Source: an uncultured Verrucomicrobiota bacterium | GTDB taxonomy: Bacteria; Verrucomicrobiota; Kiritimatiellia; RFP12; UBA3636 | Assembly: GCA_947169825.1 (NCBI GenBank) | Contig: CAMVRE010000002.1 | Coordinates: 1,248-65,247, forward strand | Length of the DNA: 64,000 bases | Direction: 5' to 3' | Shown here: one piece after another, positions 34,320-49,597 of the stretch | Layout: every line of letters starts with the position of its first letter | Numbering within the stretch: the stretch's first letter is position 1 | Translations under genes and position numbers: made by a program | Notes under the pieces: model-generated | Database searches by the model: none | Told to the model about the DNA's origin: nothing | What the model saw: only the letters and a program-made list of their open reading frames with translations

Positions 34320-34414
34320 TTTTGGTTTCTCCCGTGGCGGGGTCTGCTTCGTACCCTCGCGACGCCCCCGCCGCAACGCCGTCCAGTCTACCACCGCGCG
34401 CGCTTCCGAATCAA
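34320..34414 (-). promoter_or_regulatory. Portable promoter + leader module, copy (TTGATT-N18-TAGACT)
   Basis: Minus strand: TTGATT (comp. 34409-34414), TAGACT (comp. 34385-34390), leader GGACGGCGTTGCGGCGGGGGCGTCGCGAGGGTACGAAG...GGGAGAAACCAAAA-ATG. The hairpin is kept with one G-T wobble. Confidence 0.5.
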
Positions 34415-34493
34415 GCGGCCTCGCAGGGCGTGGTGGGGTCTGCACCCCGCCACGCCCGCATCGGCCGGAATCTCGCGGCTCGCCGCTCGTGGG

Positions 34494-34592
34494 GGACGAC
34501 GAGACGACGGGCTGACGGGACGACGGGAAATCGCGCCTCCTTTCCCGAAGGATCAAGGAGGCGTCTCCCGTCGTCTTGTCGTCCCGTCGTCC
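34494..34592. repeat. Repeat family A, copy 4
   Basis: GGACGACGAGACGACGGGCTGACGGGACGACGGGAAATCGCGCCTCCTTTCCCGAAGGATCAAGGAGGCGTCTCCCGTCGTCTTGTCGTCCCGTCGTCC. The inner stem is CGCCTCCTT/AAGGAGGCG. Confidence 0.7.
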
Positions 34593-34682
34593 TTGGACGG
34601 CCGTCACACGGGGCGGCTTTCCCACACGGCGGCCGATTCTATGGGTTTCGTGCCGTGCGGGGCCAATCGATCTTTGGGAAAA

Positions 34683-35600: not shown

Positions 35601-35693
35601 TTTGTTCTTTGTTTTAGCGGGGTTGGTTTCGTGCCGTCGCGGCGCTCCCGCCGCAACGCCTCCCAGTCTACCACCGCGCGCGCTGCGGTTCAA
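35601..35693 (-). promoter_or_regulatory. Portable promoter + leader module, copy (TTGAAC-N17-TAGACT)
   Basis: Minus strand: TTGAAC (comp. 35688-35693), TAGACT (comp. 35665-35670), leader GGGAGGCGTTGCGGCGGGAGCGCCGCGACGGCACGAAACCAACCCCGC...ATG. Confidence 0.5.
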
Positions 35694-35734
35694 GGGAGAT
35701 TCGCGGCGCGGCGGCCTCGCAGGGCGTGGCGGAT

Positions 35735-36310
35735 TCAGGGACGGCGGGCCAGGTGGCTCCCGGGGTCCAGCAGGAACGGAACGAGGCCGATGGTTTCGAT
35801 GCCCGTCTCGTCCGTCCACGGCTTCTCGAAGCCGCCGGTCACGACGATCTTCCGGAAGAAGTCCCCCGTTTTGCGCAGGGATTCCGTCTCCTGCCTGCGC
35901 TTTTCCGCGTCGGGGACCGCGTAGGCCGACTGGATGTAGACCTTCCCGGCCCCGTCGTTCACGACGAAATCGATCTCCCGCCGGACGTGTTCCTTGTCCG
36001 GTCCGGAGCCTTCCGTGGTCTCGACGACGCCGACGTCGACCGAACAGCCGCGCCCGACGAGTTCGTTGTAGAGGACGTTCTCCATGAGGTGCGCCGGCTC
36101 CTGCTGCCGGAAGTTCGTCCGAGCGTTGCGCAGGCCGACGTCCGTCGCGTACCACTTGGAGGGCGCGGACAGATAGCGCCCGCCCTTCACGTCCCACCGG
36201 TCGGCCCTTTGGAACAGGAAGGCGTCCTCGAAATACTTTAGGAACTTCCGGTGGAAACCCACCGCCCCTGAAAACGACTGGCAGTTAGAAGAGGTTTGGC
36301 GAATTGTCAA
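35735..36310 (-). pseudogene. 5'-truncated AAA-ATPase gene (DUF4143-type C-terminal part only)
   Basis: KFLKYFEDAFLFQRADRWDVKGGRYL..KWYATDVGLRNA...HLMENVLYNELVGRGCSVDVG...REIDFVVNDGAGKVYIQSAY matches the C-terminal part of AAA_14/DUF4143 ATPases. The Walker A/B part is absent, and repeats D and the CCCGTCATT motifs lie upstream. Confidence 0.55.
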
Positions 36311-36371
36311 GCGTTATTTTCCAATCTGGTGGAATTCCACCGGATCGGAAAATTCATACCGCCAACGGCGG

Positions 36372-36425
36372 CCCGTCATTTGCCGGCGAGCCGGCACCCG
36401 TCATTCCGCCGAAGGGGACCGTCAT
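36372..36425. repeat. Short CCCGTCATT + hairpin array (3 units)
   Basis: CCCGTCATT at 36372 and 36397 and a degenerate GACCGTCATT at 36417, separated by TGCCGGCGAGCCGGCA and CCGCCGAAGGGG. Confidence 0.6.
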
Positions 36426-36596
36426 TCCGGCGAAGGCTGCCCCCGCGAAGCGGACTTCCCCCGCACCGCGGCCGGTCGACGAAAGGACAACAGGACACCA
36501 GGACAAAAGGTCGCGCCCCGCTCGCCGAAGGGACAAGGGGCCGTGCGACCAGGTCGCCCGCGCGCCTTCGGCGGAGGGCCGTCAGCCGGAGAACCT

Positions 36597-37366
36597 TCAA
36601 CGGGCCGGCTGCAGGAACATCGCCATGTAGTGCGGAAGCGTAATCTTCTTTCCGACGACTCCGACGTTTCCCCCCGTGAGCTTGTAGCCGAACGGGATCG
36701 ACGGATTGGCGAGAAGCTTGTCCAGCGAGAGTGTCGCCCCCGTTTTCGCCTTCACTTCAACCGGGACGACGCCGTCCGCCGACTCGACGAGGAACTCCAT
36801 CTCGAGCCGTCCGCCGTCTTTGCTGTGGTAGAGCAGGGGGAAGCCGTTGCGCTCCAGGACGCCCGCGACGAGGTTCTCGTAGACGCCGCCCTTGAGCGAG
36901 CCGGCGAGCGTGCCTGCGCGCACTGCACGTCGCCGAAGTGCGGTTCGTCGACGAACCCCGAGACGACTTCCGGCATTCCCCCGACGACGGCGTATTCGCG
37001 CAGCAGCCGGTGGAACGTTTCGTTCACGGCCTCGGGCACCTTTTCGCGCCGTTCGAAATACGGGCGAAGGACATCGATCCGTTCATCGTCCCAGCCCTTC
37101 GCCCACAGGTATTCCCGGAACGAGAGCGAGTGCATCGTGACCTGCCGCTCGAACCCGACGGGGACGGACTTGGGCTGCCGGTCCTTGCGGCGCTTGTACT
37201 TGATGCCCAGCAGCGAGCCGGACGCGACCACGTCGCACCGGCCGTCCTGCGCGAGGAACTTCATCGCCGTCCGGGCGTTCGGGCATTCCTGGATCTCGTC
37301 GAGGAAGAGCAGCGTGCCGTAGAATTCCCGTTTCAGTTCGGCCATGGCGTCTCTTTCCCCATCCAC
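36597..37366 (-). pseudogene. Second DUF4143-type ATPase gene: 5'-truncated, frameshifted, internally shortened
   Basis: Two overlapping frames are involved. Frame 36752-37366 reads LLFLDEIQECPNA (Walker B)...SGSLLG...SFREYL...VVGGMPEVV. Frame 36597-36923 reads KGGVYENLVAGVLERNGFPLLYH...LEMEFLVESADGVVPVEVKAKTG. There is no Walker A region and the frames switch near 36905-36925. Confidence 0.6.
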
Positions 37367-37634
37367 CCGTCTTCGGCGGTGGAAAACGGCGCGATTCTAC
37401 GCCGTGTTGCATCTTTTTGCAACTTGAAAAACGTCCATGTGCAACTTTTTGCAAGATACATTTTCGGAGAATGCCGGTTTTTGCGGGCCGGGCTTCGGGG
37501 GAGGCCAGCCCCCGCGCCACGGCCGGTCGATGACATCGACGACGCCGACGACATCGACGACCCGCGCACGGAAGGCCGAAGGTCGATGGTGCGACCGGAA
37601 TCAGAGCCGCCCGGCTCCGCCGGCGGAGCCGGCA

Positions 37635-37875
37635 CCCGTCATTCCGCGAAGGCGGCCCGTCATTTGCCGGCATAGCCGGCACCCGTCATTCCGCCGAAGG
37701 CGGCCCGTCATTTCCGCGAAGCGGACCCGTCATTTGCCGGCAAGCCGGCACCCGTCATTTCCGCGAAGCGGACCCGTCATTCCGCCGGAGCCGGCACCCG
37801 TCATTCCGCCAAAGGCGGCCCGTCATTTGCCGGCAGAGCCGGCACCCGTCATTCCGCCGAAGGCGGCCCGTCATT
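37635..37875. repeat. Array of 11 direct CCCGTCATT motifs, each separated by a 12-17-nt GC mini-hairpin
   Basis: Motif starts at 37635, 37656, 37682, 37704, 37726, 37751, 37773, 37797, 37819, 37845 and 37867 (spacing 21-26 nt). The spacers are CCGCGAAGGCGG, TGCCGGCATAGCCGGCA, CCGCCGAAGGCGG, TCCGCGAAGCGGA, TGCCGGCAAGCCGGCA and so on; all are self-complementary. Confidence 0.85.
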
Positions 37876-38520
37876 GGATGCGGCCCTGCGGTCGGCGCAG
37901 AGGCGGAAGCCGATCGCGATGTCCCAGAGCCAGTGCCGGTCCGCGGCCCGGTAGGAGGACTCCACCGCCGCGTTCAACCAGCTGCCGCCGCAATAGACGC
38001 GGCCATTGCCACTCGTGGCGGTGTTCGTCCACTCCCACACGTTGCCGTGCATGTCGTAAAGCCCGAACGCATTCGGCTTCTTCAGTCCGACAGGATGCGT
38101 CTTTCCGTCCGAGTTGTCCCTGTACCACGCGACCTTGCCGAGCGTCTTCCCCGTGATTTCCGTCCCGTCCGCGAGCTTGCAGTAGTCGCCCTTCGCGCCG
38201 GCGCGGGCGGCGAACTCCCACTCCTCATCCGTCGGCAGGCGGAACACCAGGCCGGACCCCTTCGCGGCGGGCTGTGCGTTGAGCGTCTCCAGAAACTCCC
38301 GGCAATCATCGCACGAAACGCGCTCCACGGGATTCTTCGCGCCCTTGAACCGAGCGGAGTTCCAGCCCATCACGGCCTCCCACTCCGCCTGCGTGACCGG
38401 GAACCGGCCCATCCGGAAGCCCCTGCTGGGAATCGGGACCATCGAGGCGACGATGTCCTCGACGACCGCGGGATCGACGGAGGCGGCCTCCTTCTTCGTG
38501 ACGATCTTCTCCTGTTCCAT
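37849..38520 (-). CDS. FGE/SUMF1-family domain protein (223 aa, domain only)
   Basis: Track ORF 37849-38940, trimmed to ATG 38520 (GGAGGAG upstream). GRFPVTQAEWEAVMG, NPVERVSCDDCREFLETLNA, LVFRLPTDEEWEFAARAG, NAFGLYDMHGNVWEWT, CGGSW, GFRLCADRR. The last 11 codons and the stop lie in the first unit of the CCCGTCATT array. Confidence 0.8.
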   Translation of the reverse strand: MEQEKIVTKKEAASVDPAVVEDIVASMVPIPSRGFRMGRFPVTQAEWEAVMGWNSARFKGAKNPVERVSCDDCREFLETLNAQPAAKGSGLVFRLPTDEEWEFAARAGAKGDYCKLADGTEITGKTLGKVAWYRDNSDGKTHPVGLKKPNAFGLYDMHGNVWEWTNTATSGNGRVYCGGSWLNAAVESSYRAADRHWLWDIAIGFRLCADRRAASNDGPPSAE

Positions 38521-38613
38521 TCTGGCTCCTCCTGTGGCGGGGTCGTTTTCGTGCCGTCGCGGCGCTCCCGCCGCAACGCCGCCCAGTCTACCACCGCGCG
38601 CGATACGGTTCAA
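38521..38613 (-). promoter_or_regulatory. Portable promoter + leader module, copy (TTGAAC-N17-TAGACT)
   Basis: Minus strand: TTGAAC (comp. 38608-38613), TAGACT (comp. 38585-38590), leader GGGCGGCGTTGCGGCGGGAGCGCCGCGACGGCACGAAAACGACCCCGCCACAGGAGGAGCCAGA-ATG. Confidence 0.5.
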
Positions 38614-38904
38614 GGAAGTTTTCGGCCGCCACCGGGGGGCGGGGGAGCGCCCCGCACCGCGGCCGTGATTCGTCCGCGCTATGGCGCCAGCAGCGTGTCG
38701 GCCGGGACGAGGAAGTCGAACCACCCCCGGCGAACGACGGACGGCGCCAGCTCCCCGTCGTAGACGAGCGCGGTCCGGACCGAAAGGCCCGAGGCGGGGA
38801 AGAAGCGACTTGAGGTTGTTCGGGTGTCGGCTGCGGGAGAAGTTTCCCTGTCTTCCTTGTTCGACGGACAGGATCCGGCCGGGGGGGGGAGCCAGCCGTC
38901 CGAG

Positions 38905-39160
38905 ATCTGGAGCAAACGGTCTGGAATGCGATGCCGTCATCCACCTTCATGGCGGACGGTACGGACTCGTCGAAATCAAGCTCGGCGGCAAGGAGCTGGT
39001 CGAGAAAGGGGCTTCCTCCCTGAAGAAGCTTTCCTCGAAGCTCGACACGTCGAAAATGCGCAAGCCCTCGTTCCTGATGGTCTTGACCGCGGTGGGCGAT
39101 GTCGCTTACCGGCGCGAGGACGGCGTTGTGGTCTGCCCGATCTCCGCGCTGAAACCCTGA
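38905..39160 (+). pseudogene. Third DUF4143-type ATPase remnant (extreme C-terminus only)
   Basis: End of track ORF 38681-39160: ...LECDAVIHLHGGRYGLVEIKLGGKELVEKGASSLKKLSSKLDTSKMRKPSFLMVLTAVGDVAYRREDGVVVCPISALKP. This is the E.D....iEvKlg...L..L pattern of the nuclease-like C-terminal domain, with nothing homologous upstream. Confidence 0.45.
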
Positions 39161-39263
39161 ACTCGCGTCGCGGTGCCGACTGCGTCGATGCCCGGCCGGG
39201 AGAGGGGGGGCGGCTTCCCCCGGAGACCGGCCGGTCGACGCGGTCGGACCCGCACACTCGCGC

Positions 39264-39452
39264 CTATCCTCCGGCGAGTTTCAGCAACAGCAGGAACCCG
39301 AGGCCGAGAAGGATGAAGCCGATGACGGTTTTCGAAAGTTCGTAGGCGATGCGGAACGTCCCCTTGAGGATCTTGAACCCGGTCGCCGCCAGCGCCGAGA
39401 CGAAGGCGACGGCAACGACGATTCCGAGGAGGACGAGGAGGGCCGTTTTCAT
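39264..39452 (-). CDS. Small two-helix membrane protein (62 aa)
   Basis: MKTALLVLLGIVVAVAFVSALAATGF...TVIGFILLGLGFLLLLKLAGG. The ATG overlaps the amidohydrolase stop (ATGA). Confidence 0.45.
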   Translation of the reverse strand: MKTALLVLLGIVVAVAFVSALAATGFKILKGTFRIAYELSKTVIGFILLGLGFLLLLKLAGG

Positions 39453-40201
39453 CGTCCGCGGAGGAATCGGAAGAAGTTGCCCGACATCACGGCCTCTGAA
39501 TAGCCGTATTCCTTCGCGCCTTCGAGGTCGTTGGCGTAGAGTTCGTCGATCGTGCCTTCGTAGAATCCGGCCTGGAGCGGCAGGTCCGTTCCGAACATCA
39601 CGCGGTCTTCAACGCCCGCCGCGACGAGTTCCGGGTAGCTTTCCGGAGACATGAAGGCGGTGTCCGTGAAGAGGTTCGGACATTCCTTCAGGCAGTCGAT
39701 CGTTTCCCGGACGGGGCGACAGTGCGCGAAGTCGATGCGAAGCCGCGGATGGCGCTTCGCGAACGGCAGAAGTTCGTGCGGATAGCAGCCCGCGTCCTCG
39801 CCCGTGTGGAACTGGACCGGCACGCCCCGCTCCTCGAGCAGGGAAAGAATCCGGTCGAGGTCCTTCGGGCGCTTCTTGACCCACGGCGTCTCCTTCTCGT
39901 GCAGCTTCACGCCCTCCCAGAGCCCGGAGTTGAGGGTCTTCAGATCGGGATCGGCATCGTAGAAGCGCCCGGCGAGCCAGTAGAAGGCGTGCGCTCCCTC
40001 GCCGAACGCCGCCTTCGTCTCGACGGCGTCGCGTTCGATGGTCTCGAAGGGCAGCCCCTTCTGCGCGTTCATCGACGAGAAGATGAACTCATCCACCCCC
40101 TGTCGCTTGAGAATCTCGGCGATTTCCGAGGCCTTGAAGTCCTTCACGGACCGCTCGTCGCCGATGTCCCCCACATGTACGTGTGCGTCGCAGATTTTCA
40201 T
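39449..40201 (-). CDS. Metal-dependent TIM-barrel amidohydrolase family protein
   Basis: 250 aa. N-terminal CDAHVHVG, a central FHTGE and a C-terminal MFGTDLP follow the Amidohydro_2-type pattern. Confidence 0.7.
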   Translation of the reverse strand: MKICDAHVHVGDIGDERSVKDFKASEIAEILKRQGVDEFIFSSMNAQKGLPFETIERDAVETKAAFGEGAHAFYWLAGRFYDADPDLKTLNSGLWEGVKLHEKETPWVKKRPKDLDRILSLLEERGVPVQFHTGEDAGCYPHELLPFAKRHPRLRIDFAHCRPVRETIDCLKECPNLFTDTAFMSPESYPELVAAGVEDRVMFGTDLPLQAGFYEGTIDELYANDLEGAKEYGYSEAVMSGNFFRFLRGR

Positions 40202-40231
40202 TTCGTTCGTTTTCCTTTCTTGGTTGTTCGT

Positions 40232-41035
40232 TTACCGTGGCCCTCGTGGAATGTTGTTTTCCATGTTCAGATCCTCGTATTTCATTCCCATACAGGATTC
40301 GAATCGGTCCTTGAACTCCGGCTGGCTCCGCAATAGTGTGCGCCAGTCATCGATGCCAAGTTTCTTCCAGTCGCAAAAATGCTGGAATTCGATTCTGGGC
40401 TTCTTCGACAGGAGTTCCGACCAGTCCTTGCCGTCGAGCAGACTCCATTTGCACGGCATGAAAACGGCGTTCAGCACGAATCCCGGGACGCCGCGCATCC
40501 AGAAGTGCAGAAGGAAGTCCCGCCAGTCCCGGCCCGTGAAGTGATTGAACCGGCATCGGGAGAGGTCGTGGTTCCAGTTGAGGATCATCGCCTGGACCGC
40601 CCCTCCCTGTTTTCCGGCGTCCACGAGTTCCAGTTTTTTTAGGAGCGGCCGCCGGGGCTGCATCCATTTGCGTCGCGTCTTTTCGTTCGCTTCTTCGAGG
40701 CTGAACGATGTTTTCCCAGGATGGGCCGGGTCTCGGACATTCATCCCTTCGAATCCCATCGTTTCGAGGTCGCCTCCGTCGAATTCCTCCCAGCGGTCGC
40801 ATTTCTCCGCGAGCTGCGGCTGCCGACTGAGCAGCGCGGCCCAGTCCTCCTTGCTCCATTCCGCGGCGGACGACCAGTCCCACCGTGCGGCGAACCCGGG
40901 TCGTCTGCACAGCAGGTAGTGCCAGGCCTTTCCGTCGAACGACATCCAGTCGCACTCGTCCGCCGCTCCCGATCGTTCGCAGAGCAGCTTCGCCCATTCG
41001 ATCCCCGTCCGTGGGACGGTCTTGTTCTCTTTCAT
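40232..41035 (-). CDS. W-repeat protein paralogue (267 aa)
   Basis: IEWAKLLCERSGAADECDWMSFDGKAWHYLLCRRPGFAARWDWSS...EDWAALLSRQPQLAEKCDRWEEF...KDWSELLSKKPRIEFQHFCDWKKLGIDDWRTLLRSQPEF. The start lies 1 nt after the GT9 stop. Confidence 0.65.
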   Translation of the reverse strand: MKENKTVPRTGIEWAKLLCERSGAADECDWMSFDGKAWHYLLCRRPGFAARWDWSSAAEWSKEDWAALLSRQPQLAEKCDRWEEFDGGDLETMGFEGMNVRDPAHPGKTSFSLEEANEKTRRKWMQPRRPLLKKLELVDAGKQGGAVQAMILNWNHDLSRCRFNHFTGRDWRDFLLHFWMRGVPGFVLNAVFMPCKWSLLDGKDWSELLSKKPRIEFQHFCDWKKLGIDDWRTLLRSQPEFKDRFESCMGMKYEDLNMENNIPRGPR

Positions 41036-41036
41036 T

Positions 41037-42047
41037 TCAGGCTCCGTTGTCGGCCGACACCAAACGCTTCGCTTCCTGCACGGCGGCGGAGACCGGCACC
41101 TCGCCGATGCACGCCCGCCGGCAGTCGCCGCACCGGGAGCCCGTTCTGATTCCGCAGTCCGGCATCAGGATTCCATGCCGCGCGACATCGTAGCAAAACC
41201 AGTTGTCCGCCCCGGAATTCGAAAAGAACTGGAGCGTCGGAACATCGAACGCGGCCGCGAAGTGCATGGGGCCGGAATCGTTGCCTATGACCAGTCTGGC
41301 ATGCACGATCAACCACGCGAGTTCGGCAAACGGCAAGCTGCGGAACGCCTTTCTCCCGAGTTCCGCGAGTTCCGCATCGACGCCCGTGTCCATTGAGCCG
41401 ATCGCGAAAACTGCGGACAAACCGATGTCGCGCAACGCGCGGGCAACCTCTTCGACCTTCCGAACGGGGTAGATTTTGCAGTCGCTCGAGGCGCCCGGCA
41501 GAAACAGCGCATAGTCGCCCTCGGGCGGATCGTCCGGCGGAATGCACCGGTAGTTGGCTTCCGTCAGCCGAGCCGGACCTCCCTCGAAATCCGGATTCAC
41601 GAGGCGGATCAGTTCGGCATACTGGTTCGGAACGAACCGACGCTTCTTCAGCGTCATGTTTTCCCAGTAGTCGAGAGACACCCACTTGTCGAAGACTTCG
41701 GCGCATGTCGCGGGCGGGCGTTTCGTTTCCTCCATTCCGTATGACCGGCCGTCCCGACTCTTCAAACGACGGACCAGTTCCGTACACCAGGAATCGTAGC
41801 CGTGGTTGAAAACGGCGTCGAACCGTTCTTCGAATGCTTTCGGGAGCGAAAAGATTCCCGGCGGGCCTTGTTCAAGTGCCACGACATGGTCGCAGGGTGC
41901 ATAATTGGAATAGAGGCTGGCGATTGATGGCGTCGCGAAGACAGTGGTTTCGCAAGGCGCGTACAGTCGCTTGAGTTCTTCCAGTTCGCCCATCAGGAGA
42001 ACCGAATCCCCGAGGGGAGCGAAGGGAATGAAGGCGATCCGCTTCAT
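41037..42047 (-). CDS. Glycosyltransferase family 9 (heptosyltransferase-like)
   Basis: 336 aa. The N-terminal PLGDSVLLMGELEELKRLYP-type motif and VIGNDSGPMHFAAAFDVPTLQFF match the GT9 GNDSGPMHLAAA signature. Confidence 0.75.
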   Translation of the reverse strand: MKRIAFIPFAPLGDSVLLMGELEELKRLYAPCETTVFATPSIASLYSNYAPCDHVVALEQGPPGIFSLPKAFEERFDAVFNHGYDSWCTELVRRLKSRDGRSYGMEETKRPPATCAEVFDKWVSLDYWENMTLKKRRFVPNQYAELIRLVNPDFEGGPARLTEANYRCIPPDDPPEGDYALFLPGASSDCKIYPVRKVEEVARALRDIGLSAVFAIGSMDTGVDAELAELGRKAFRSLPFAELAWLIVHARLVIGNDSGPMHFAAAFDVPTLQFFSNSGADNWFCYDVARHGILMPDCGIRTGSRCGDCRRACIGEVPVSAAVQEAKRLVSADNGA

Positions 42048-42053
42048 TTCGCC

Positions 42054-43502
42054 TCACTGCCCGGCGTCGTGCCTGCGCTTGAACTCCTCCACGATTTCGC
42101 GGTTGATTCGTGCAACCTTGCAGAAATGGTCGCTCACCTTGAGCATATTGCCCGTCTCGTTGAAGTTGCGAACGAGACATGTCGCGCAGAACGTCCGGTC
42201 TGGGCATCCAATGCATTGCGGGATGTCCTTTTTCCGCAGTCCGCGTAAGTAGAGAATCGCTGGCGACTTTTCCCAGACTTCCCGCAGCGTCTTCTCGTGG
42301 CAGTTCCCGAGCGGGTAGTCCTGGAAGCCCGAGCAGGGATAGTAGTTGCCGTCGGCGTTGAGACAGATCGCATCGATCCCGACGCCGCACATCGGGAGAT
42401 TCCCCCATTCCTCCACGCTCATTTCCTTCGACGGATCGTAGTTGGGAATTTCCGCGGCGAACGACGGATCGTGTTCGGCGATCGTGGTGATGATTTCCCG
42501 CGTCTCGTCGAGCGAAAGACGGTTCGCGAGATTGTCGGTCGTGTGGTCGCTCCGCGCCATCATGATGAAGTCCGTATAGGCCTTGCACTTGAGCGAAACG
42601 CCGTAGTCGAGGACGGCCTGGTAGCCCTTGTAGTTTCCCTTCATCGTCGGGCAGGAGATCTGGACTGGAACGTTCAGCGCGTGGAGCCTCTCGATGGCCG
42701 CTTTCGTCTTCGCGAACGAGCCGGGCAGCTGCGTGATGGCGTCGTGCGTCGCCGCATCCATGCTGTAGAGCGAAACCTGGACGAGTGAAAGATTCTGCGT
42801 GGCGAGGAAGCGGCACGTCCTCTCGTCGCAGAGCGTGAGGTTGGACAGCACCGAGACCGAAAGGTCCTTCCCGCGCGCGTGAGCGAGAATTCGCTTGAAG
42901 TCCGGGTGCAGCATGCATTCGCCGCCCGAAAGCGTGATCGAGAGACCTCCCATCTCGCGGAATTCATCGATTACGCGCAAGGCGCTCTCGGTTTCCATCG
43001 TGAAGTGCCGGTCGCGGGGAACGTAGCAGTGGACGCACTTCTCCGTGCAGCGCGACGTGAGATCGAGGTGGAGGGAGAACGGCGTCGGATGCGACTCGAA
43101 ATACTCGTGCAGTTCCGCATGTTCGCGGGCCTGCTGCCGCTCCTGCTCCGTGATGTTGCCGAGGTCGAACGCCGTCGAGGGAACTTCAATGTCGTAGGTG
43201 AAGGACGGATCCTTCCGATCCAGTTCCTCTGGCGTCGCGCCTTCGACGACGAAATTCTCCTCCACGAGCGGTTGCAGCAACTCCGCGAAGTCCCGACCGA
43301 CCTGCGCCGGATTGGCGTCCGCAAACAGCGCGGCGATTCGCTCCACGGCGTCCGCAACGGCGACCGGCGTCCGCCCGATGAACCGGAGGAACGGCTCCGC
43401 GTCCTTCAGGTCCAGGTCGGATTTCGTGAGCTGGTTGAAAATGTGCGTGTAGGGCCCGTATTGGCGGACGAACGCATTTTTGGAGAGACGAAGAAGTTTC
43501 AT
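42054..43502 (-). CDS. Radical SAM / SPASM-domain peptide-maturase-like enzyme with PqqD/RRE-like N-terminal region
   Basis: 482 aa. CxxxCxxC cluster SRCTEKCVHCYV. C-terminal SPASM cysteines: CGVGIDAICLNADGNYYPCSG...QCIGCPDRTFCATCLVRNF. The N-terminal ~110 aa (...RTPVAVADAVERIAALF...VGRDFAELLQPLVEENFVV) look PqqD-like. Confidence 0.85.
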   Translation of the reverse strand: MKLLRLSKNAFVRQYGPYTHIFNQLTKSDLDLKDAEPFLRFIGRTPVAVADAVERIAALFADANPAQVGRDFAELLQPLVEENFVVEGATPEELDRKDPSFTYDIEVPSTAFDLGNITEQERQQAREHAELHEYFESHPTPFSLHLDLTSRCTEKCVHCYVPRDRHFTMETESALRVIDEFREMGGLSITLSGGECMLHPDFKRILAHARGKDLSVSVLSNLTLCDERTCRFLATQNLSLVQVSLYSMDAATHDAITQLPGSFAKTKAAIERLHALNVPVQISCPTMKGNYKGYQAVLDYGVSLKCKAYTDFIMMARSDHTTDNLANRLSLDETREIITTIAEHDPSFAAEIPNYDPSKEMSVEEWGNLPMCGVGIDAICLNADGNYYPCSGFQDYPLGNCHEKTLREVWEKSPAILYLRGLRKKDIPQCIGCPDRTFCATCLVRNFNETGNMLKVSDHFCKVARINREIVEEFKRRHDAGQ

Positions 43503-43571
43503 GTCGGAAGAATTGCGGAAAAATCCCGCCGGTCGGAAGCACGAGCTTCCGACCGGCGGGTGTGGTATCCT

Positions 43572-43700
43572 CTACCGCGTACGTTCGCAAGAACGGCAGT
43601 TGCCGTGTCCGCTGCCGTCCGTTCCGAACGTCGGGCAGCCGGCGACGAACGAACGCTGGGCAGCGGACTTCGCCACGATCTGGGGTTTCTTGTAGGCCAT
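43572..43700 (-). CDS. Candidate RiPP precursor peptide (42 aa), not in the ORF track
   Basis: The reverse strand reads AAGGAGACCATAAA-ATG GCC TAC AAG AAA CCC ... CGG TAG, giving MAYKKPQIVAKSAAQRSFVAGCPTFGTDGSGHGNCRSCERTR. It has a strong SD, ends 69 nt upstream of the rSAM/SPASM gene and carries three Cys in the C-terminal half. Confidence 0.55.
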   Translation of the reverse strand: MAYKKPQIVAKSAAQRSFVAGCPTFGTDGSGHGNCRSCERTR

Positions 43701-43802
43701 TTTATGGTCTCCTTTGTGTTTGTTGTTGTTTTGTTTTTCCCCGCGCCGGCACCCGCCGGGCGGGAAGGGGATTAGAAGTCGCCGTTACCCTCGTCCGACT
43801 TG

Positions 43803-45206
43803 TCAAGAGGAGAACGACTTCCAGAAATTCGGGTCGCCGAGCGCCGCGATTCCACGCTCGACGGCCGCGTCGTCATGGTGATAAGTGTGTTTTTTGCCCT
43901 CTTCGTCCTCGTACGTTTCGTCCCACACCTTGTATCGCCGCAGTTTCGGGCACCGCGCGACAATCCGGTCCGCGGCATCTTCGGGCAGGTCTCCCCAGCG
44001 GCATTTATTCGCGAACTGCGGTTGTTTCGGCAAGAGGAAGATCCAATCCTCCGGCGAAAAACCGGACCAGCCGTCGAAAAACTCGGCTTCCTCCGGATGT
44101 TCCGCGAGGCGGGCCGCCCAGTCGGAAACGGCTTCCCGCTCCCGTTCCTCTTCCTCTTCCCGGCGTCGCCGCTCTTCTTCCTCCTGCTGGCGTCTCCTCG
44201 CCGCTTCTTCCTCCCGGCGTTTTCGCCGCTCTTCCGCTTCCTGGCGCTTCCGCGCCTCTTCCGCCTCCCGACGCTTTCTCTCCGCTTCCTCCTTCTGCCG
44301 GATCCGCTCCTTTTCCGCCTCCACCTCCTCGGACCATTCCTTCGGGAGAGACGCGACGGCCGGACGCTTGTCCGGCCCCTTCGCCAGGCGCAGGGCGGCG
44401 TCGAGAGCTGGCTGCATTTCGTCCGTGGCGTCGCGCGGGAAACCCAGGCGCTCCAGCGCTCCGGGAAGGCACGCCTTGTATGCGACCCGTTTTGTCGAGG
44501 CGGCACGTTCCGTCCGGATCGCCGCGACGATCTCCTCGAGCGGAATCCGGTCGAACGCGCGCCGTGAGCGCGGGTCGAGCGTCGGGGCGCGGAACCGATC
44601 ATAGGCGGCCGGATCCGCGCCGGCGGGCCAGAAGACCAATTCGTCGAGGCGCGACGTGAGCGGTCCCAACGACTCGATGGCAAGGCAAAGGCCCGCGTGG
44701 AAGACGAGGCGGCGTTGATCGTCGGTTTGATCGCCCGTCCACCATTCTTCCATCGCCCGCTCGAAAAGAAGACTTTCCGTAACGGGTCCTTCCTTCCCGA
44801 CAATCCGAAGAATCTGGTCGCGGATGATGGCCGGTCCCGCGGTAAGATTGAATTTGGACGAGTGGTAGGTTTTCCCTTTTTCCTCCGGCTCGTAAGGCGT
44901 CGCCCCCGCGCGCCTGATCCGCTCCAGCGCCTCGGCTTCCTCCCGCGCCTTCTTCTCCGCGGCCGCCTTTCGCTCGGCCTCCCGGCGGGCCAGGGCGGCC
45001 TCCTCGCGGGCCCGGGCGGCCGCCGCGGCTTCCGCCCGCTTGCGCGCCGCCTCGGCTTCGGCGGCCTTTTTCCGCTCCTCCTCGGCCTTCGCCTCGGCGA
45101 TGGCCGTCTCGACCGCGGACTTGGCGTTCTTGACGGCCTTGACCCCGGTTTCGGCCGCGGCGATGCCCGTGCGGACGATTTTCTTCAGCAATGATTCAAA
45201 GCGCAT
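43803..45206 (-). CDS. Hypothetical 467-aa protein: two charged coiled-coil segments, a central domain, and a C-terminal W-repeat module
   Basis: Track ORF 43803-45632, trimmed to ATG 45206 (MRFESLLKKIV...). It has two E/R/K/A-rich stretches. The central region GPVTESLLFERAMEEWW...LVFWPAGADPAAYDRFRAP...IPLEEIVAAI is faintly DUF3320-like. The C-terminus has SDWAARLAEHPEEAEFFDGWSGFSPEDWIFLLPKQPQFANKCRWGDL. Confidence 0.6.
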   Translation of the reverse strand: MRFESLLKKIVRTGIAAAETGVKAVKNAKSAVETAIAEAKAEEERKKAAEAEAARKRAEAAAAARAREEAALARREAERKAAAEKKAREEAEALERIRRAGATPYEPEEKGKTYHSSKFNLTAGPAIIRDQILRIVGKEGPVTESLLFERAMEEWWTGDQTDDQRRLVFHAGLCLAIESLGPLTSRLDELVFWPAGADPAAYDRFRAPTLDPRSRRAFDRIPLEEIVAAIRTERAASTKRVAYKACLPGALERLGFPRDATDEMQPALDAALRLAKGPDKRPAVASLPKEWSEEVEAEKERIRQKEEAERKRREAEEARKRQEAEERRKRREEEAARRRQQEEEERRRREEEEEREREAVSDWAARLAEHPEEAEFFDGWSGFSPEDWIFLLPKQPQFANKCRWGDLPEDAADRIVARCPKLRRYKVWDETYEDEEGKKHTYHHDDAAVERGIAALGDPNFWKSFSS

Positions 45207-45222
45207 GGAAATCCTTCCTGGT

Positions 45223-45831
45223 TCATTCGTCGGCGTCGTTGGATGAGCTCTTTTCCTTCTTGGCGAGTGTGTCGAGGAGGCGGAAGGACGCGGACGACGA
45301 AACGCCGGGTTCGTCTTTCGCGGCGCGGGCTTCGTCCATCGCCTGGCGGACGAGTTCAGGGTCCTTGCCCTGCTCGACGAGCATCTCGGCCGTCTGCCGC
45401 AGGCCTTCTTCGTCCTTCCGGGCGTCGCGATGCGCGAGAGCGGCCGCGACGAACGGAATCCTGCCCGCAACATGGGCCGCGAGGCCGACAAGGGCCGCGA
45501 CCGTCCAGAGCGTCCAGAACTGGCCGCGGACGATCCAGAAGAAGAGGGCGGCGAGGGCCGCGTCGAGGAAGAGCGCGCCGTAGCTCGCGGAGGTGGCCGT
45601 GTTCTTGGCGCCATACGTGAGGCCGACCGCAAAGAGGAACGCGGCGACGAAGCCGACGAGATGGAAGACGCCGTAGAAGGATTCCCAGCCGAGCCATTCG
45701 AAGAGAAGGCAGCCGAGCCACCAGACGCCGAACGGGATGCCCATGCAGAAGATGCCGACGACGAGCAGCTCGTTGAAGGCGACGTTCGGACATTCGTCCA
45801 TATCGAGATACTTGATCCGGGTTGTGCTCAT
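45223..45831 (-). CDS. Integral membrane protein (about 4 TM helices)
   Basis: Track ORF 45223-45942, trimmed to ATG 45831 (MSTTRIKYLDMDECPNVAFNELLVVGIFCMGIPFGVWWLGCLLF...). Its stop lies 16 nt before the next gene's start. Confidence 0.6.
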   Translation of the reverse strand: MSTTRIKYLDMDECPNVAFNELLVVGIFCMGIPFGVWWLGCLLFEWLGWESFYGVFHLVGFVAAFLFAVGLTYGAKNTATSASYGALFLDAALAALFFWIVRGQFWTLWTVAALVGLAAHVAGRIPFVAAALAHRDARKDEEGLRQTAEMLVEQGKDPELVRQAMDEARAAKDEPGVSSSASFRLLDTLAKKEKSSSNDADE

Positions 45832-46093
45832 TGGGTCGGCTGGGTGCGGGGTGCAAACGAGGAAGGGCCCTTCCGTCGCGGTTCCCCTGAGGCCCTGGAA
45901 AAGCCCGATCAAGAAACGCGAAGGAAGGGACGTGCAATGCACGCACCCTGCCGACAGGCCGCCTTTGATCTTTTGAACTTTCCAGGTTTCAGGGGATCGG
46001 CGGTTTGCAGCGGTGCAAATCTGGCGCGAAGTCTAGCAGACCCGCGTCGGCAAATCAACACCGTTTTCGCGCTTCTTGATCGGGGAGAATGCA

Positions 46094-46383: not shown

Positions 46384-48831
46384 TCAGGGAGACACGCGGA
46401 GCGCGGCGGCTTCGGCTTCGAGGGCGCGGGCGCGGTCCTCGTCGCCGAGGAGACGGTGGGCGCGGACGAGGTTGTCGAGGATCTCGGCGATGACGGGGCG
46501 GTAGCGCGCGGGATCGGAGACGAGGAGCGGCGCGAGGAGGCCGCGCATCTCGTCCCAGGCGGAGACGGCTTCCTCGTAGCGCTCCTGCTCGGCGCAGGTC
46601 CGGGCGAGACGGCCAAGGGCCTGCGCGCAGGCGAGGCGGTAGCCCTCGCCGTGAGCCTTGAAAAGATCCCGCCAGAGTTCGGTGGCCCGGCGGTAGGCCG
46701 CGATGGATTCGAGGCGGGCTCCGGTCTCCCGGTGCAGCTCGCCGAGGCGGTAGTGGCAGCCGGCGAGGAGGTCGAGAAGCGGCTGCTCCGCAGCCGCAGT
46801 GACAAGTGACGAGTGACGAGTGACGAGTGAGCCCGAGCGAGAGGCGTTCGGTGTTTCGACCGGAGAAGGGGTCTCGTTCGGGAAGAGGAAGGGCTCGAGG
46901 GCCTCGATGGCGCGGGAGGTCATCGTGAGGGCGGCGGCGGTTTCGCCGGCCCGATGGAGCATCCCGCCGAGGGCGGCCGCCAGGACGAAGAGCTGCGCCT
47001 TGCAGCCCGGATCGTCCGCCGGCGCGTAGCGGGCCCAGAGCAGCCCCGCTTCTTGGAGATCGGCGGCGGATTCGCGGAAGCGGCCCTCCATGCATTCCAT
47101 GTAGGCGCGCTCGGAGAGAAGCCAGGAGCGGAGCGGCCCGTAGCGCGCGGGATCGGACTCCACGAGCGGATCGATGGTGGCGAGGGCGTCGCGATAGGGC
47201 GCGTCGGCCGCGCCTTGGTCGGCGTTGGCGACGTAGGTCCACGAGAGACGGGCGAGGCAGAGGGCGAGGCGGACGCGCGCCGCGGGGGCGGCGTTGGTGG
47301 CTGCGGCGGCCCTCCGGGCGGTTTCGACGGCTTCGAACCAGGCGCTGTTCGCGCGCCCGATGGCGGCGCGATCCTGTCTCCAGGAGGACCAGGCGCCGTC
47401 CCCTTCGCGAACTTTGAGGAGAAGCTCCGCGTCCCCGCCGGAGAAGGCCTCGGCCTCAAAACGAACGATGGGGAGCAGCCGAAACGTGCCGAGCAGCTGC
47501 AGGGGGCCGCGGTCCTCGCCCTGCCAGACCGAATCGAGGCGCGGCGGCATCGGATGGGCGGGGAAGACGATGGCAACGGGAGGAGGCTGCGCCTCCCCCG
47601 AACCCCCACCAGCGAGGACAGGCTCTGCGGCCTCTGCGCTCTCTGCGTGAGAACCTATGGGAGGAGGCTGCGCCTCCCCCGAACCCCTTTCGGAAACGGA
47701 ACCGGGCTCTGCGTGGAAGCGGATGGTGACGGCCGCGGCTGCCGCTACGGCCGCGACGGCGGCGAGGGCGGCCCGCGCCGCGCGGCGCCGGCTTCGCGTG
47801 GCGGGGTCGATGGCGCGGCCGATCGCATCCAGTCTCCGCGTGATGGCGGCGGGGTCGGCGAGGCGGCGGGCGGGATCGGGATCGAGCAGGTCGCGCAGGA
47901 AGGGATCCCAGGCGCGGACGATGCGCGAAGGATCGTAGGAGGAGGGCGGGCGCAGGGAGCGCGGGCGATCGCCGGTGAGCGCCTCGTAGAGGACGGCGCC
48001 GAAGGAATACCAGTCGAGGGCCGGCGTGAGTTCCGCGCCGGCGCGGAACTGCTCGGGCGCGGCGTAGGCGGGGGAGCCGAGGAACTTGCGCGCACCGGAT
48101 TCGTCGAGGGAGATGGAATCGGGGGCCTCCGCGGCCCCCGAACCCCTCTCTGGCCGGGACGGAGCCCGGCCATCAGGACTCGCCGGAGCCCGGCCATCAG
48201 GACTCTCTGCGGACTCTGCGTGAGACCCTCCTCCTCCGCGTGTGAACTTCGCGAGGCCGAAGTCGGCGAGGAGGGCGCGGCCGGAGGCGTCGAAGAGGAC
48301 GTTGGAGGGCTTGACGTCGCGATGGAGGATGCCGACGGCGTGGGCGGCGGCGAGCGCGCCCGCAAGGTCGCGCGCGATGCGCAGCACGGCGGCCTCGGGC
48401 AGCGCCTTGCCGCCGTCGAGGAGGGCGGCAAGCGGGAGGGGACGAGGGGCGCCGGCGCCGCCCTCCGCCCCCTCCGGCGCGAAGCCATGGGGATAGGGGC
48501 AGAGGAGGACCTCGTCGCAGAGGCGGGCGATCTCGGACGGGGAGAGGAGGACGGCCGGCGTGACGAGATAGCGAAGGCCCGTGGCGGGGTCTTCCCCGGC
48601 GTGCAGGACGGGGAGGATCGACGGATGGTCGAGGGCGGCGAGGGCGCGGGCCTCGCGCTCGAAGCGGCGGGTGCGCGTGGCGCTGTCCGAGGGCCTCATC
48701 GCCTTGAGCGCCACGTCGCGGCCGAGCGCGCGATCGCGCGCCAGCCAGACCTCCCCCATGCCGCCCTCGCCGATCGGACGGAGAAGCGCGAAGGAGTTGT
48801 CGATGACGAGGCCAGGACGAAGGTCTTTCAA
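46384..48831 (-). CDS. Ser/Thr protein kinase with one TM segment and a large helical-repeat (TPR-like) C-terminal domain
   Basis: 815 aa, TTG start. GEGGMGEVWLARD, VALKAM, HRDVKPSNVLF, DFGLAKF, GSPAYAAPEQ. TM helix AALAAVAAVAAAAAVTIRF. The linkers contain in-frame copies of repeat family F and other short duplications. Confidence 0.85.
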   Translation of the reverse strand: MKDLRPGLVIDNSFALLRPIGEGGMGEVWLARDRALGRDVALKAMRPSDSATRTRRFEREARALAALDHPSILPVLHAGEDPATGLRYLVTPAVLLSPSEIARLCDEVLLCPYPHGFAPEGAEGGAGAPRPLPLAALLDGGKALPEAAVLRIARDLAGALAAAHAVGILHRDVKPSNVLFDASGRALLADFGLAKFTRGGGGSHAESAESPDGRAPASPDGRAPSRPERGSGAAEAPDSISLDESGARKFLGSPAYAAPEQFRAGAELTPALDWYSFGAVLYEALTGDRPRSLRPPSSYDPSRIVRAWDPFLRDLLDPDPARRLADPAAITRRLDAIGRAIDPATRSRRRAARAALAAVAAVAAAAAVTIRFHAEPGSVSERGSGEAQPPPIGSHAESAEAAEPVLAGGGSGEAQPPPVAIVFPAHPMPPRLDSVWQGEDRGPLQLLGTFRLLPIVRFEAEAFSGGDAELLLKVREGDGAWSSWRQDRAAIGRANSAWFEAVETARRAAAATNAAPAARVRLALCLARLSWTYVANADQGAADAPYRDALATIDPLVESDPARYGPLRSWLLSERAYMECMEGRFRESAADLQEAGLLWARYAPADDPGCKAQLFVLAAALGGMLHRAGETAAALTMTSRAIEALEPFLFPNETPSPVETPNASRSGSLVTRHSSLVTAAAEQPLLDLLAGCHYRLGELHRETGARLESIAAYRRATELWRDLFKAHGEGYRLACAQALGRLARTCAEQERYEEAVSAWDEMRGLLAPLLVSDPARYRPVIAEILDNLVRAHRLLGDEDRARALEAEAAALRVSP
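46798..46832. repeat. Heptanucleotide tandem repeat (AGTGACG)n inside the kinase CDS
   Basis: AGTGACA AGTGACG AGTGACG AGTGACG AGTGAGC, encoding ...GSLVTRHSSLVT... on the minus strand. The unit length is not a multiple of 3. Confidence 0.7.
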
Positions 48832-48945
48832 GGGTAAAGTTGAAAGGGAAAAGTGTAAAGTTGAAAAGGTTGAAGGGGTTGAAGAGTTGAAAAGCGAACA
48901 ACTTTAGACTTTAAACTTTAGACTTTAAACTTTCAACTTCTGCAT
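48832..48945. repeat. AT-rich simple-repeat block: 5 GTTGAA cores, then (AAACTTTAGACTTT)~2.5 and an inverted TTCAAC
   Basis: GTTGAA at 48839, 48860, 48869, 48878 and 48886; ACTTTAGACTTTAAACTTTAGACTTTAAACTTTCAAC spans 48901-48937. The block covers the kinase upstream region, the sigma-factor stop and the last ~10 sigma codons. Confidence 0.7.
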
Positions 48946-49597
48946 CGTCTTCTTCCAGTTTCTCCAAGAGGTCGGCGGCGGAGAGGCGGCCGCGGCCGAA
49001 GCGGTCGAGCTCCTCGCGGACGGCGCGCAGGATGCGGTTGCGGATCTGGTAGACGGCGTTGGGCTTGAGCTTGAACTCGCGTCCGACGTCGGCCGGAGCC
49101 TCGCCCTCCAGCGCGACGCGGCGGAAGACGGCCTGCGTGTTCGGCGAGAAGCGTCCGGAGCGGAAGACGCGCTTGAGGGCGAGCGTCCAGATCCGGAGCA
49201 GGGTCTCCGACTCGCCGTCGGCGGCGGGCGGAGGCGCGGGGAGGGCGTCCGCGAGCGAGGGCGGAACGGGCGCCGGGCGGCGCTGGAGGCGGAGGACGGC
49301 GTTGCGGACGGCGCGCCGCAGGTAGGCGCGGAAGGAGCTGCGCCCGGGCACGTAGCGGAAGCCCGGCAGGGCGGAGCGTACGGCGAGGAAGACCTCCTGC
49401 ACGAGGTCGTCGCGGTCGAACGGCTGGATCGGCTCGTGCCCGATGCGGGACGCCGCCACGTAGCGGCGCAGGACCGGCTCGTAGAGCCGCGCGAACGCCT
49501 CCGCGCGCGGCGAGGCGGGGTTCGCGGCGAGTTCGCGCAGCAGCGTCTCGGAGGTGGTGGGCGTGCGCTCGTCCGCCGGGCGGTCCCGGCCGCTCAT
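48911..49597 (-). CDS. ECF-type sigma-70 family RNA polymerase sigma factor
   Basis: Last 228 codons of the artefactual 2706-aa track ORF. MSGRDRPADE...; region 2-like DDLVQEVFLAVRSALPGFRY...FRAYLRRAVRNAVL; region 4-like VFRRVALEGEAPADVGREFKLKPNAVYQIRNRILRAVREEL. The start overlaps the RND stop (ATGA). Confidence 0.8.
   Translation of the reverse strand: MSGRDRPADERTPTTSETLLRELAANPASPRAEAFARLYEPVLRRYVAASRIGHEPIQPFDRDDLVQEVFLAVRSALPGFRYVPGRSSFRAYLRRAVRNAVLRLQRRPAPVPPSLADALPAPPPAADGESETLLRIWTLALKRVFRSGRFSPNTQAVFRRVALEGEAPADVGREFKLKPNAVYQIRNRILRAVREELDRFGRGRLSAADLLEKLEEDDAEVESLKSKV

Follow-up and report, generated by a model that had tools for sequence, protein, structure and literature searches.

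Within a 64,000-nucleotide stretch of DNA from an uncultured Verrucomicrobiota bacterium of the class Kiritimatiellia (GTDB lineage RFP12; UBA3636), taken from contig CAMVRE010000002.1 of GenBank assembly GCA_947169825.1 (positions 1,248 to 65,247) and referred to here as the window, we describe a six-gene operon that is probably a cassette for modifying a ribosomally made peptide. Its conserved core consists of a short cysteine-containing peptide, a radical S-adenosylmethionine (rSAM) enzyme with a SPASM domain and an Amidohydro_2 (PF04909) enzyme, to which the window adds a glycosyltransferase of family GT9, a tryptophan- and cysteine-rich repeat (W-repeat) protein and a small hydrophobic protein. 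Judging from comparative sequence evidence, the 42-aa peptide is very likely the substrate of the rSAM enzyme. Whether the product carries thioethers is close to an even call, and a role for the GT9 enzyme in decorating the peptide falls slightly short of even.

The peptide recurs beside its enzyme in distant bacteria. An rSAM-based scan of one genome per species returned 585 loci, and the family counts given here use the best 80 of these. When these 80 loci were searched by tblastn with the 42-aa window peptide, 68 had a same-strand homologue beside the rSAM gene, nearly always upstream and in three loci just downstream; many of the remaining 12 end at a contig border. Because it recurs on the same strand in so many related loci, the small open reading frame (ORF) is not a chance one. 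By their record titles, the 80 loci span about ten phyla and include Lentisphaeria/Victivallales, Kiritimatiellia, Akkermansiaceae, many Bacteroidales and Prevotellaceae, Fibrobacter, Treponema and other spirochaetes, Clostridia and Lachnospiraceae, and Elusimicrobiota. Bins labelled Desulfuromonadaceae, Chloroherpeton, Flexilinea and Alphaproteobacteria contribute one locus each, and a few more bin labels look implausible. In almost all cases the sample was gut, rumen or termite gut. A profile built from 40 of the peptides retrieved 2,081 clusters at 90% identity, compared with 2,773 homologues of the rSAM enzyme in the protein collection. Nearly all of these clusters are unnamed or called 'hypothetical protein', one submitter having chosen the label 'Bacteriocin', and both peptide copies of Treponema primitia are labelled hypothetical in RefSeq. 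Five family peptides compared with Pfam and NCBIfam (June 2026) matched no family at E ≤ 10. An earlier note on this DNA, made from its letters alone, had proposed a RiPP-type (ribosomally made, post-translationally modified peptide) operon of peptide and maturase whose precursor it could not place in a named family, and had named conservation of the peptide beside homologous maturases as a test; the comparative genomics agrees with it on each of these points.

The family follows the pattern M-x-Y-K-K-P-x-I-V-A-K-N…G-S-Y-A-A-G-C-P…loop…C-x-x-C-E-R-T-x, and in the window a leader-like N-terminal part ends in S-F-V-A-G-C-P, followed by a hypervariable loop and a C-terminal C-x-x-C-E-R-T-R. Among 73 distinct peptides, a Tyr and a Lys near the start, an Ala, a Ser and Gly-Cys-Pro are invariant, the last within a block S-[YF]-[AV]-A-G-C-P. 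The G-C-P cysteine is present in all 73 and the two C-terminal cysteines in 53 and 68, and the tail after the first cysteine runs from 13 to 38 residues. Most peptides end in C-x-x-C-E-R-T-x, and a Lentisphaeria/Akkermansia subgroup ends in C-x6-C-M-C-G-P-L-K.

The loop evolves very differently from its surroundings. Between the window and L081, the locus of the closest relative, the DNA agrees at 55/63 positions of the 5' untranslated region, 67/69 of the leader, 10/33 of the loop and 21/27 of the codons for the C-terminal motif, so that a loop at the random level of about 30% follows leaders that are near-identical (97%). The 5' untranslated region is conserved in both L081 and L088 (alignment of the window with L081, L088 and L084). 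Two cassettes with different peptides occur in one genome in the pairs L050/L053 and L016/L024 (Treponema primitia ZAS-10 and a Prevotellaceae metagenome-assembled genome), and tandem arrays of two or three peptide genes are seen in some loci. A loop this variable, and genomes with more than one cassette, suggest a product that is diffusible or antagonistic (a bacteriocin or a signal, for instance) and not a housekeeping cofactor. About 16 loci also have a second, tandem rSAM paralogue, and at least three tail cysteines are found in 12 of 16 two-rSAM cassettes versus 13 of 55 with a single enzyme (Fisher p = 3e-4, shared ancestry not corrected for). The subgroup with two rSAM genes and C-x6-C-M-C-G-P-L-K peptides comprises L001, L003, L011, L027, L035, L089–L092 and others; separately, two database proteins of about 825 aa each (P0022 and P0029) appear to be fused double rSAM enzymes.

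In the window, all six genes lie on the minus strand (Table 1). The earlier note had placed the 42-aa ORF, with AAGGAG eight nucleotides before its start, 69 nt ahead of the rSAM gene and had given the further gaps as 6, 1, 30 and −4 nt. We find the same arrangement, and the same five distances on recomputation from the coordinates; the last is a 4-nt overlap of the start of the 62-aa gene with the amidohydrolase stop. Pfam supports each enzyme: Radical_SAM (PF04055, E = 3.9e-20) and SPASM (PF13186, E = 1.1e-9) in the maturase, Glyco_transf_9 (PF01075, E = 8e-17, 61.8 bits against a cutoff of 22) in the glycosyltransferase and Amidohydro_2 (E = 1.4e-17, 64.8 bits against 26.4) in the amidohydrolase. 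Many further ORFs listed for this G+C-rich window DNA have no comparable Pfam support. A sigma-70 promoter scan gave no match 5' of the peptide gene, a result that says little for this organism, and an Rfam search of window positions 38–50 kb also gave none.

Table 1. Features of the peptide cassette and its upstream putative regulators (window coordinates)
Feature	Position	Strand	Basis
Precursor peptide gene (putative), 42 aa, MAYKKPQIVAKSAAQRSFVAGCPTFGTDGSGHGNCRSCERTR	43572..43700	-	ORF; related peptides upstream of related rSAM genes
Ribosome-binding site AAGGAG, 8 nt 5' of the peptide ATG	43709..43714	-	Direct sequence reading
Terminator- or attenuator-like hairpin between peptide and rSAM genes	43518..43560	-	Scan and fold
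Radical-SAM/SPASM maturase, 482 aa, RRE-like N-terminal domain	42054..43502	-	Pfam, invariant Cys, AlphaFold2, Foldseek
GT9-family glycosyltransferase, 336 aa	41037..42047	-	Pfam PF01075, AlphaFold2, Foldseek
Trp/Cys-repeat (W-repeat) protein, 267 aa, six units of about 25 aa	40232..41035	-	Repeat positions
Amidohydro_2 (PF04909) metal-dependent hydrolase/decarboxylase-type enzyme, 250 aa	39449..40201	-	Pfam
Hydrophobic protein, 62 aa, two predicted membrane helices (hydrophobic stretches by eye)	39264..39452	-	ORF
Ser/Thr kinase with TPR, likely regulator, upstream of cassette	46384..48831	-	Pfam Pkinase, E = 1e-28
Sigma factor with Sigma70_r2, likely regulator, upstream of cassette	48911..49597	-	Pfam, E = 8e-10

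The peptide and rSAM genes are separated by a strong hairpin, with a 16-bp stem (13 G-C pairs), a 4-nt loop and a following ATTTTT, whose fold of −40.3 kcal/mol corresponds to z = −6.5. It is kept in L081, L088 and L084, where both stem arms differ from those of the window; on visual inspection of the alignment, not on a count of pairs, we read these changes as compensatory. A terminator-like hairpin stands after 32 of the 75 peptides of the family, compared with 35 of 225 random sites. We infer an attenuating role, in which the hairpin would set a high ratio of precursor to enzyme.

A hairpin directly 3' of a small ORF could also mean that the ORF is a regulatory leader or attenuator, or alternatively a lipoprotein signal with an A-G-C lipobox, with the rSAM protein being a metabolic enzyme of the heme type or an anaerobic sulfatase-maturating enzyme (anSME). 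The V/A-A-G-C sequence fits the lipobox pattern, and the top NCBIfam matches of the enzyme are the heme-pathway models NirJ2 and AhbD. Yet the peptide is conserved at the amino acid level, including its C-terminal cysteines, across about ten phyla, it occurs in tandem copies, and its partner enzyme has an RRE-like domain that anSME does not, so that we regard this explanation as extremely unlikely. An attenuator-only leader peptide is rejected on the protein-level conservation and tandem copies, and a lipoprotein signal on hydropathy: the mean Kyte–Doolittle value before the cysteine is −0.3 to 0.4, compared with 2.2 for a stretch taken as the h-region of the E. coli Lpp signal.

The maturase itself resembles peptide-modifying enzymes over its whole length. 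Its full-length relatives share 45–93% identity. The earlier note had pointed to a CxxxCxxC cluster and a full SPASM cysteine set, and both are borne out: across 18 homologues, no change is seen at C152, C156 and C159 or at the seven SPASM cysteines (C372, C390, C430, C433, C439, C442 and C461), the ligand set of a pair of auxiliary Fe-S clusters. An AlphaFold2 model built with 18 homologues (predicted local distance difference test, pLDDT, 89) orders the chain as N-terminal domain, rSAM barrel and SPASM domain. Residues 3–97 form strands at 3–6, 10–15, 18–23 and 28–33 and helices at 36–39, 49–58 and 65–81, with pLDDT of about 90. In Foldseek, the model matches peptide-bound SuiB, SkfB, CteB, TigE and PqqE best, over about 490 aligned columns, whereas anSME ranks lower and aligns over the core only, across about 385 columns; by sequence, the closest solved relatives are SkfB, PqqE and SuiB (5v1q). 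From this fold and the full-length matches to SuiB and CteB, which bear a RiPP recognition element (RRE), the first 100 residues or so are predicted to be an RRE-like domain. The PqqD-like N-terminus of the earlier note thus holds up in its fold and structural matches but is weak by sequence (E = 0.016) and, because the Pfam match is sub-threshold, rests mainly on the AlphaFold2 model.

No NCBIfam equivalog cutoff is reached by the window rSAM enzyme. The best scores, for NirJ2, AhbD, ScmE, ScmF, PqqE and MftC, are 80–104 bits against cutoffs of 265–500, and the models for sactipeptide and ranthipeptide maturases stay far under theirs (PapB 61 against 340, AlbA 65 against 850, SkfB 58 against 300 and StsB 67 against 625 bits). 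Because none is approached, we place the enzyme in a clade of its own; an exact-sequence look-up of the window protein found no record. The earlier note had also offered a test, whether the maturase would group with SPASM enzymes outside RiPP pathways such as anSME, and the enzyme turns out to resemble SuiB, SkfB, CteB and PqqE more than anSME. We reject the anSME identity on the extra N-terminal domain of about 100 residues, the Foldseek ranking below peptide maturases and the lack of any equivalog match. In addition, the sulfatase motif C-x-P-x-R is not in the peptide, which has G-C-P instead.

The third core gene changes how the operon is seen. The earlier note had treated the amidohydrolase as a tailoring enzyme, unusual in combination with a GT9, but by ORF clustering over the 80 loci and the window (81 maps), it is present in 63 of the 68 loci with at least 1.5 kb of downstream sequence, and in 50 of these 68 it starts within 400 nt after the rSAM gene on the same strand. 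All of 63 homologues share the residues D5, H7, H9, K99, H101, H132, H160, D180 and D206, and by its residues the amidohydrolase-type metal site (HxH, His, His, Asp) is intact. No close solved structure was found for it, ACMSD matching at E of about 0.03. Within PF04909, the amidohydrolase-related dinuclear oxygenases (AROs) are marked by D-x-H instead of H-x-H at the N-terminus and by a D-x-P-H-x-D/E motif at the C-terminus (PMC13154177). We tried and rejected this O2-dependent oxygenase type as an identity for the window enzyme: D5-A-H7-V-H9 keeps H-x-H, D206-L-P-L-Q-A is without the His, and the hosts are gut anaerobes.

Put together, these parts suggest a pathway. The precursor would be transcribed in excess because of the strong terminator hairpin between the peptide and enzyme genes. 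The RRE-like domain of the maturase would bind the N-terminal Y-K-K-P-x-I-V-A-K stretch, and the rSAM core with its two auxiliary Fe-S clusters would then act on the conserved cysteines of the peptide, in G-C-P and in the C-x-x-C-E-R-T pair, or modify the peptide by way of them. The likeliest product would have thioether-type bonds from sulfur to carbon that turn the hypervariable loop into a ring, thioethers being the commonest outcome for cysteine-rich substrates of rSAM/SPASM enzymes. The invariance of the cysteines and the way their number tracks that of the rSAM genes lend indirect support to such chemistry. The amidohydrolase would contribute a hydrolytic step, in the simplest case cutting off the leader or trimming one end. 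In the Lentisphaeria lineage, the GT9 enzyme may add a sugar to the peptide, by family precedent a heptose from ADP-heptose, and this is the weakest step of the scheme. The W-repeat and 62-aa membrane proteins might, speculatively, be lineage-specific helpers in binding, immunity or export.

In kind, the locus is an RRE-dependent rSAM/SPASM RiPP system whose nearest known systems are the ranthipeptides (SCIFF), the sactipeptides and streptide. Ranthipeptide systems (CteA–CteB, Tte1186 and PapB–freyrasin) and sactipeptide systems (SkfB and AlbA) share with it a short cysteine-containing precursor next to an RRE-rSAM-SPASM or twitch enzyme, and SkfB and CteB are among its best sequence and structure matches, alongside the weak StsB, AlbA, PapB and SkfB model scores. 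The differences are that those curated models score far under cutoff, that no peptide model, SCIFF or other, recognises the window precursor, which is laid out differently (a G-C-P some 21 residues in, then the hypervariable loop and C-x-x-C-E-R-T), and that an obligatory Amidohydro_2 partner is no part of those systems. Among structures, SuiB of the streptide pathway (SuiA–SuiB) matches best and shares the RRE, rSAM and SPASM architecture; however, it has only 14–16% sequence identity and forms a Lys-Trp C-C crosslink, whereas the conserved residues here are cysteines. For the hydrolase, there is a precedent in bottromycin biosynthesis, where BotAH/PurAH, a member of the amidohydrolase superfamily, removes the follower peptide of a RiPP (PMC10885120). 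BotAH/PurAH belongs to another Pfam family and to a YcaO-based actinobacterial pathway; the likeness is one of precedent only. The rSAM cluster 'BGC8' of a Bacteroidales mining paper, with its YcaO, GG-leader and PCAT, was considered and is a different system. We found no description of a peptide/rSAM/amidohydrolase family in the open-access papers and bioRxiv preprints searched, and neither the obligatory PF04909 partner nor the dedicated GT9 clade has a counterpart in the literature and curated models searched.

The logic of mycofactocin (MftA/B/C/E/F) and pyrroloquinoline quinone (PQQ; PqqA/D/E) biosynthesis is also similar: a peptide, an RRE with an rSAM/SPASM enzyme and, for mycofactocin, the amidohydrolase-type peptidase MftE and the glycosyltransferase MftF. 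The cassette could accordingly be imagined to make a peptide-derived intracellular cofactor or small molecule, with the rSAM enzyme altering the C-terminus, the amidohydrolase excising it and the loop serving as a spacer. A conserved leader and C-terminus around a variable spacer do recall MftA and PqqA, in most loci the three-gene core is not accompanied by genes for export, proteolysis or immunity, and the models of MftC and PqqE match weakly (80.6 bits against 265 and 82.4 against 381). These cutoffs are missed, the RRE is fused here, the hydrolase belongs to PF04909 rather than to the creatininase type, the glycosyltransferase is GT9 rather than GT2, and the window peptide is without the G-V-Y or E-x3-Y ends of the mycofactocin and PQQ peptides. 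A cofactor also sits poorly with genomes that hold two cassettes with different peptides and loci with two or three tandem peptide genes. The loop, fully turned over between strains whose enzymes are 93% identical, speaks of diversification and not neglect; no cofactor-dependent enzyme recurs among neighbours that vary across about ten phyla, and the window cassette is lower in G+C than its flanks. We consider a cofactor quite unlikely and prefer a modified peptide as the end product.

The GT9 gene has a narrower distribution than the core. It is present in two of the 80 loci (L001 and L003, both Victivallaceae) and is seen only in Lentisphaeria-type cassettes. A search with the window GT9 among 5.8 billion proteins recovered a clade of just 13 clusters scoring 123–753 bits, followed by ordinary heptosyltransferases at 62 bits. 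All clade members with readable context (L001, L003 and L087–L092, eight loci, of which two are short duplicates from other samples) lie inside the cassette, either after the rSAM gene or after the amidohydrolase gene, and in L087–L092 the GT9 gene overlaps at least one adjoining cassette gene by 4 nt. In Foldseek, the AlphaFold2 model of the enzyme (pLDDT 89.7) pairs with a GT9 of Veillonella and with WaaC and WaaF at template modelling (TM) scores of 0.72–0.74 (entries 3tov, 6dfe and 1psw) and with the protein heptosyltransferase TibC at 0.55. The NCBIfam heptosyltransferase equivalogs are not reached, the best being TIGR02193 at 46.3 bits against 185.3, and phmmer against the Protein Data Bank at E ≤ 0.01 gave no match. 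WaaC and WaaF thus share the GT-B fold with an enzyme whose clade is separate from them and confined to this peptide cassette. Because the clade occurs only within the cassette and the gene is absent from L081, we view GT9 as an optional yet dedicated module; the earlier note was right to place a GT9 enzyme (PF01075, GT-B fold) beside the maturase, but it is an accessory and not a fixed part of the operon.

With the core system left as described, the GT9 enzyme might instead be an envelope heptosyltransferase, acting on lipopolysaccharide (LPS) or another glycan, that merely travels with the operon. Its absence from L081 would fit, as would a fold nearer to WaaC and WaaF than to protein-modifying TibC, and our search of the open-access literature and bioRxiv turned up no GT9-glycosylated RiPP. 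On the other hand, a clade so small, so far apart from generic heptosyltransferases and found in every readable case within the cassette, at two positions and overlapping or nearly abutting its neighbours, is difficult to account for unless enzyme and cassette are functionally tied. TibC is a precedent for heptosyltransferase-fold enzymes that glycosylate proteins. We judge the passenger explanation unlikely, though a good deal less so than the other alternatives, and favour, tentatively, a GT9 enzyme that acts on the peptide.

The remaining cassette genes are restricted to close relatives. The W-repeat protein, built of six copies of a unit of about 25 aa (DWxxLLxxxPxxxxxCDW), has no Pfam family, recurs only in the cassettes of the near relatives L081, L084 and L087/L088, and is possibly a binding scaffold. 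The repeat is seen in three more window ORFs (8404–9210, 32934–33974 and 43995–44045, all on the minus strand) and in 634 representative proteins elsewhere, many of them 1,000–1,800 aa long with 10–17 matched stretches. Three of the five longest that we scanned have TIR and/or AAA_16/nSTAND1 domains, and the unit has the look of a sensor-type repeat, so far undescribed, in STAND NTPases. A near-identical 62-aa gene stands in the same position in L081/L082 and L087/L088, and there is no homologue of it in the 80 more distant loci. Relatives can also carry a gene of about 325 aa between peptide and rSAM (L081 1946–2917, 323 aa; L087 3638–4615; L088 3375–4352), called an FRG-domain (PF08867) gene in L087 and L088, which have it in addition to GT9; the window has no such gene, its peptide–rSAM gap being 69 nt. 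Within positions 43803–45942 (minus strand), the 609-aa ORF upstream of the peptide is probably over-called. In L087, one 360-aa gene joins a membrane N-terminus to a C-terminus with a coiled coil and a single W-repeat; the window counterpart of that membrane N-terminus lies in a separate frame (45223–45942), which may reflect a frameshift or rearrangement.

Further upstream, the window encodes a Ser/Thr kinase that a hydrophobic segment after the kinase domain suggests is membrane-anchored and a sigma factor that we read as ECF-type (extracytoplasmic function). In 20 of the 81 maps, a homologue of the kinase is encoded no more than 7 kb from the cassette; in Bacteroidales, these kinases are paired with another protein, about 200 aa long. 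From this co-location, kinase and sigma factor may have a regulatory or sensing link to the cassette. Other neighbours vary among loci and are mostly unannotated, several being HipA-, AAA-ATPase-, GIY-YIG- or Sel1-like by eye, and recurrent neighbours other than the kinase were treated as island background and not as parts of the system. No dedicated exporter or protease is conserved across the cassettes, and ABC transporters occur in few loci. The cassette has a G+C content of 59–64% against 70–73% in the flanking genome, and across window positions 33000–46000 it is 53–66% against the same flanks, which suggests a horizontally acquired island. Overall, the cassette looks like a module that moves horizontally and whose product selection drives to diversify. 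Downstream, a repeat of about 24 nt (CCCGTCATTCCGCCGAAGGCGGCC, at least nine copies) forms clusters at 36364–36441 and 37602–37875 that flank unclear ORF fragments, and a protein with an FGE-sulfatase domain (37849–38940, minus strand) lies near the cassette and is unrelated to the rSAM enzyme, itself not an anSME.

Such surroundings could be those of a conflict or defence island, in which the modified peptide would be an intracellular toxin, decoy or signal tied to kinase- or STAND-type neighbours. HipA-, AAA-ATPase- and GIY-YIG-like genes, an nSTAND1 gene called near L087/L088, the FRG-domain gene within the operon of close relatives, the TIR and STAND-NTPase domains of W-repeat proteins elsewhere, the nearby kinases and the hypervariable loop would all suit it. 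But PADLOC returned no specific defence model, only generic matches of the rSAM protein to viperin and of kinase domains, the neighbours are not conserved across loci, and hypervariable cores are just as typical of bacteriocins. A defence role is, to our mind, very unlikely, and a diffusible or antagonistic peptide is the reading that we carry forward.

Several observations weigh against the proposed scheme as a whole. We infer thioether formation, hydrolysis and glycosylation alike from sequence. The PqqD match (PF05402) at the maturase N-terminus, at 16 bits, stays under the 23.4-bit cutoff, and NirJ2 and AhbD, at about 100 bits, score slightly above ScmE, ScmF and PqqE, with all of them far under cutoff. 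The correlation between cysteine count and rSAM count is confounded by shared ancestry. Most cassettes have no dedicated exporter, protease or immunity gene, which is unusual for a secreted bacteriocin. GT9 enzymes usually act on LPS, and L081, the closest relative with an rSAM enzyme 93% identical to that of the window, has the same operon without GT9. Finally, characterised PF04909 members mostly act on small molecules, as decarboxylases, lactonases or oxygenases, and not on peptides (see PMC13154177).

A bolder proposal would make the core trio a new RiPP class with a chemistry of its own, in which a head-to-tail-like ring between G-C-P and C-x-x-C-E-R-T is formed and then processed by the TIM-barrel hydrolase, the loop being a strain-specific signal or weapon of gut and rumen that Ser/Thr kinases read, and the Lentisphaeria version being the first GT9-decorated RiPP. 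We regard this full picture as improbable.

Uncharacterised rSAM-RiPP families in general are not rare. If our inference is true, this one would be among the larger uncharacterised families of rSAM-modified peptides, with more than 2,000 distinct precursors carried by Bacteroidales, Prevotellaceae, Akkermansia, Fibrobacter, Treponema, Lentisphaeria, Clostridia and other bacteria of gut, rumen and termite gut. Its unusual traits would be the obligatory PF04909 partner and the built-in hypervariable loop, and no curated model or published chemistry for the family was found in the sources searched. For natural-product and microbiome research, the family offers a genome-mining lead and a compact three-gene target for heterologous expression, and the GT9-bearing variant of the window would provide a test case for the tailoring of ribosomal peptides by the heptosyltransferase family. 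The frequently adjoining Ser/Thr kinase, in turn, suggests a testable regulatory or sensing link in the bacteria that carry these cassettes.

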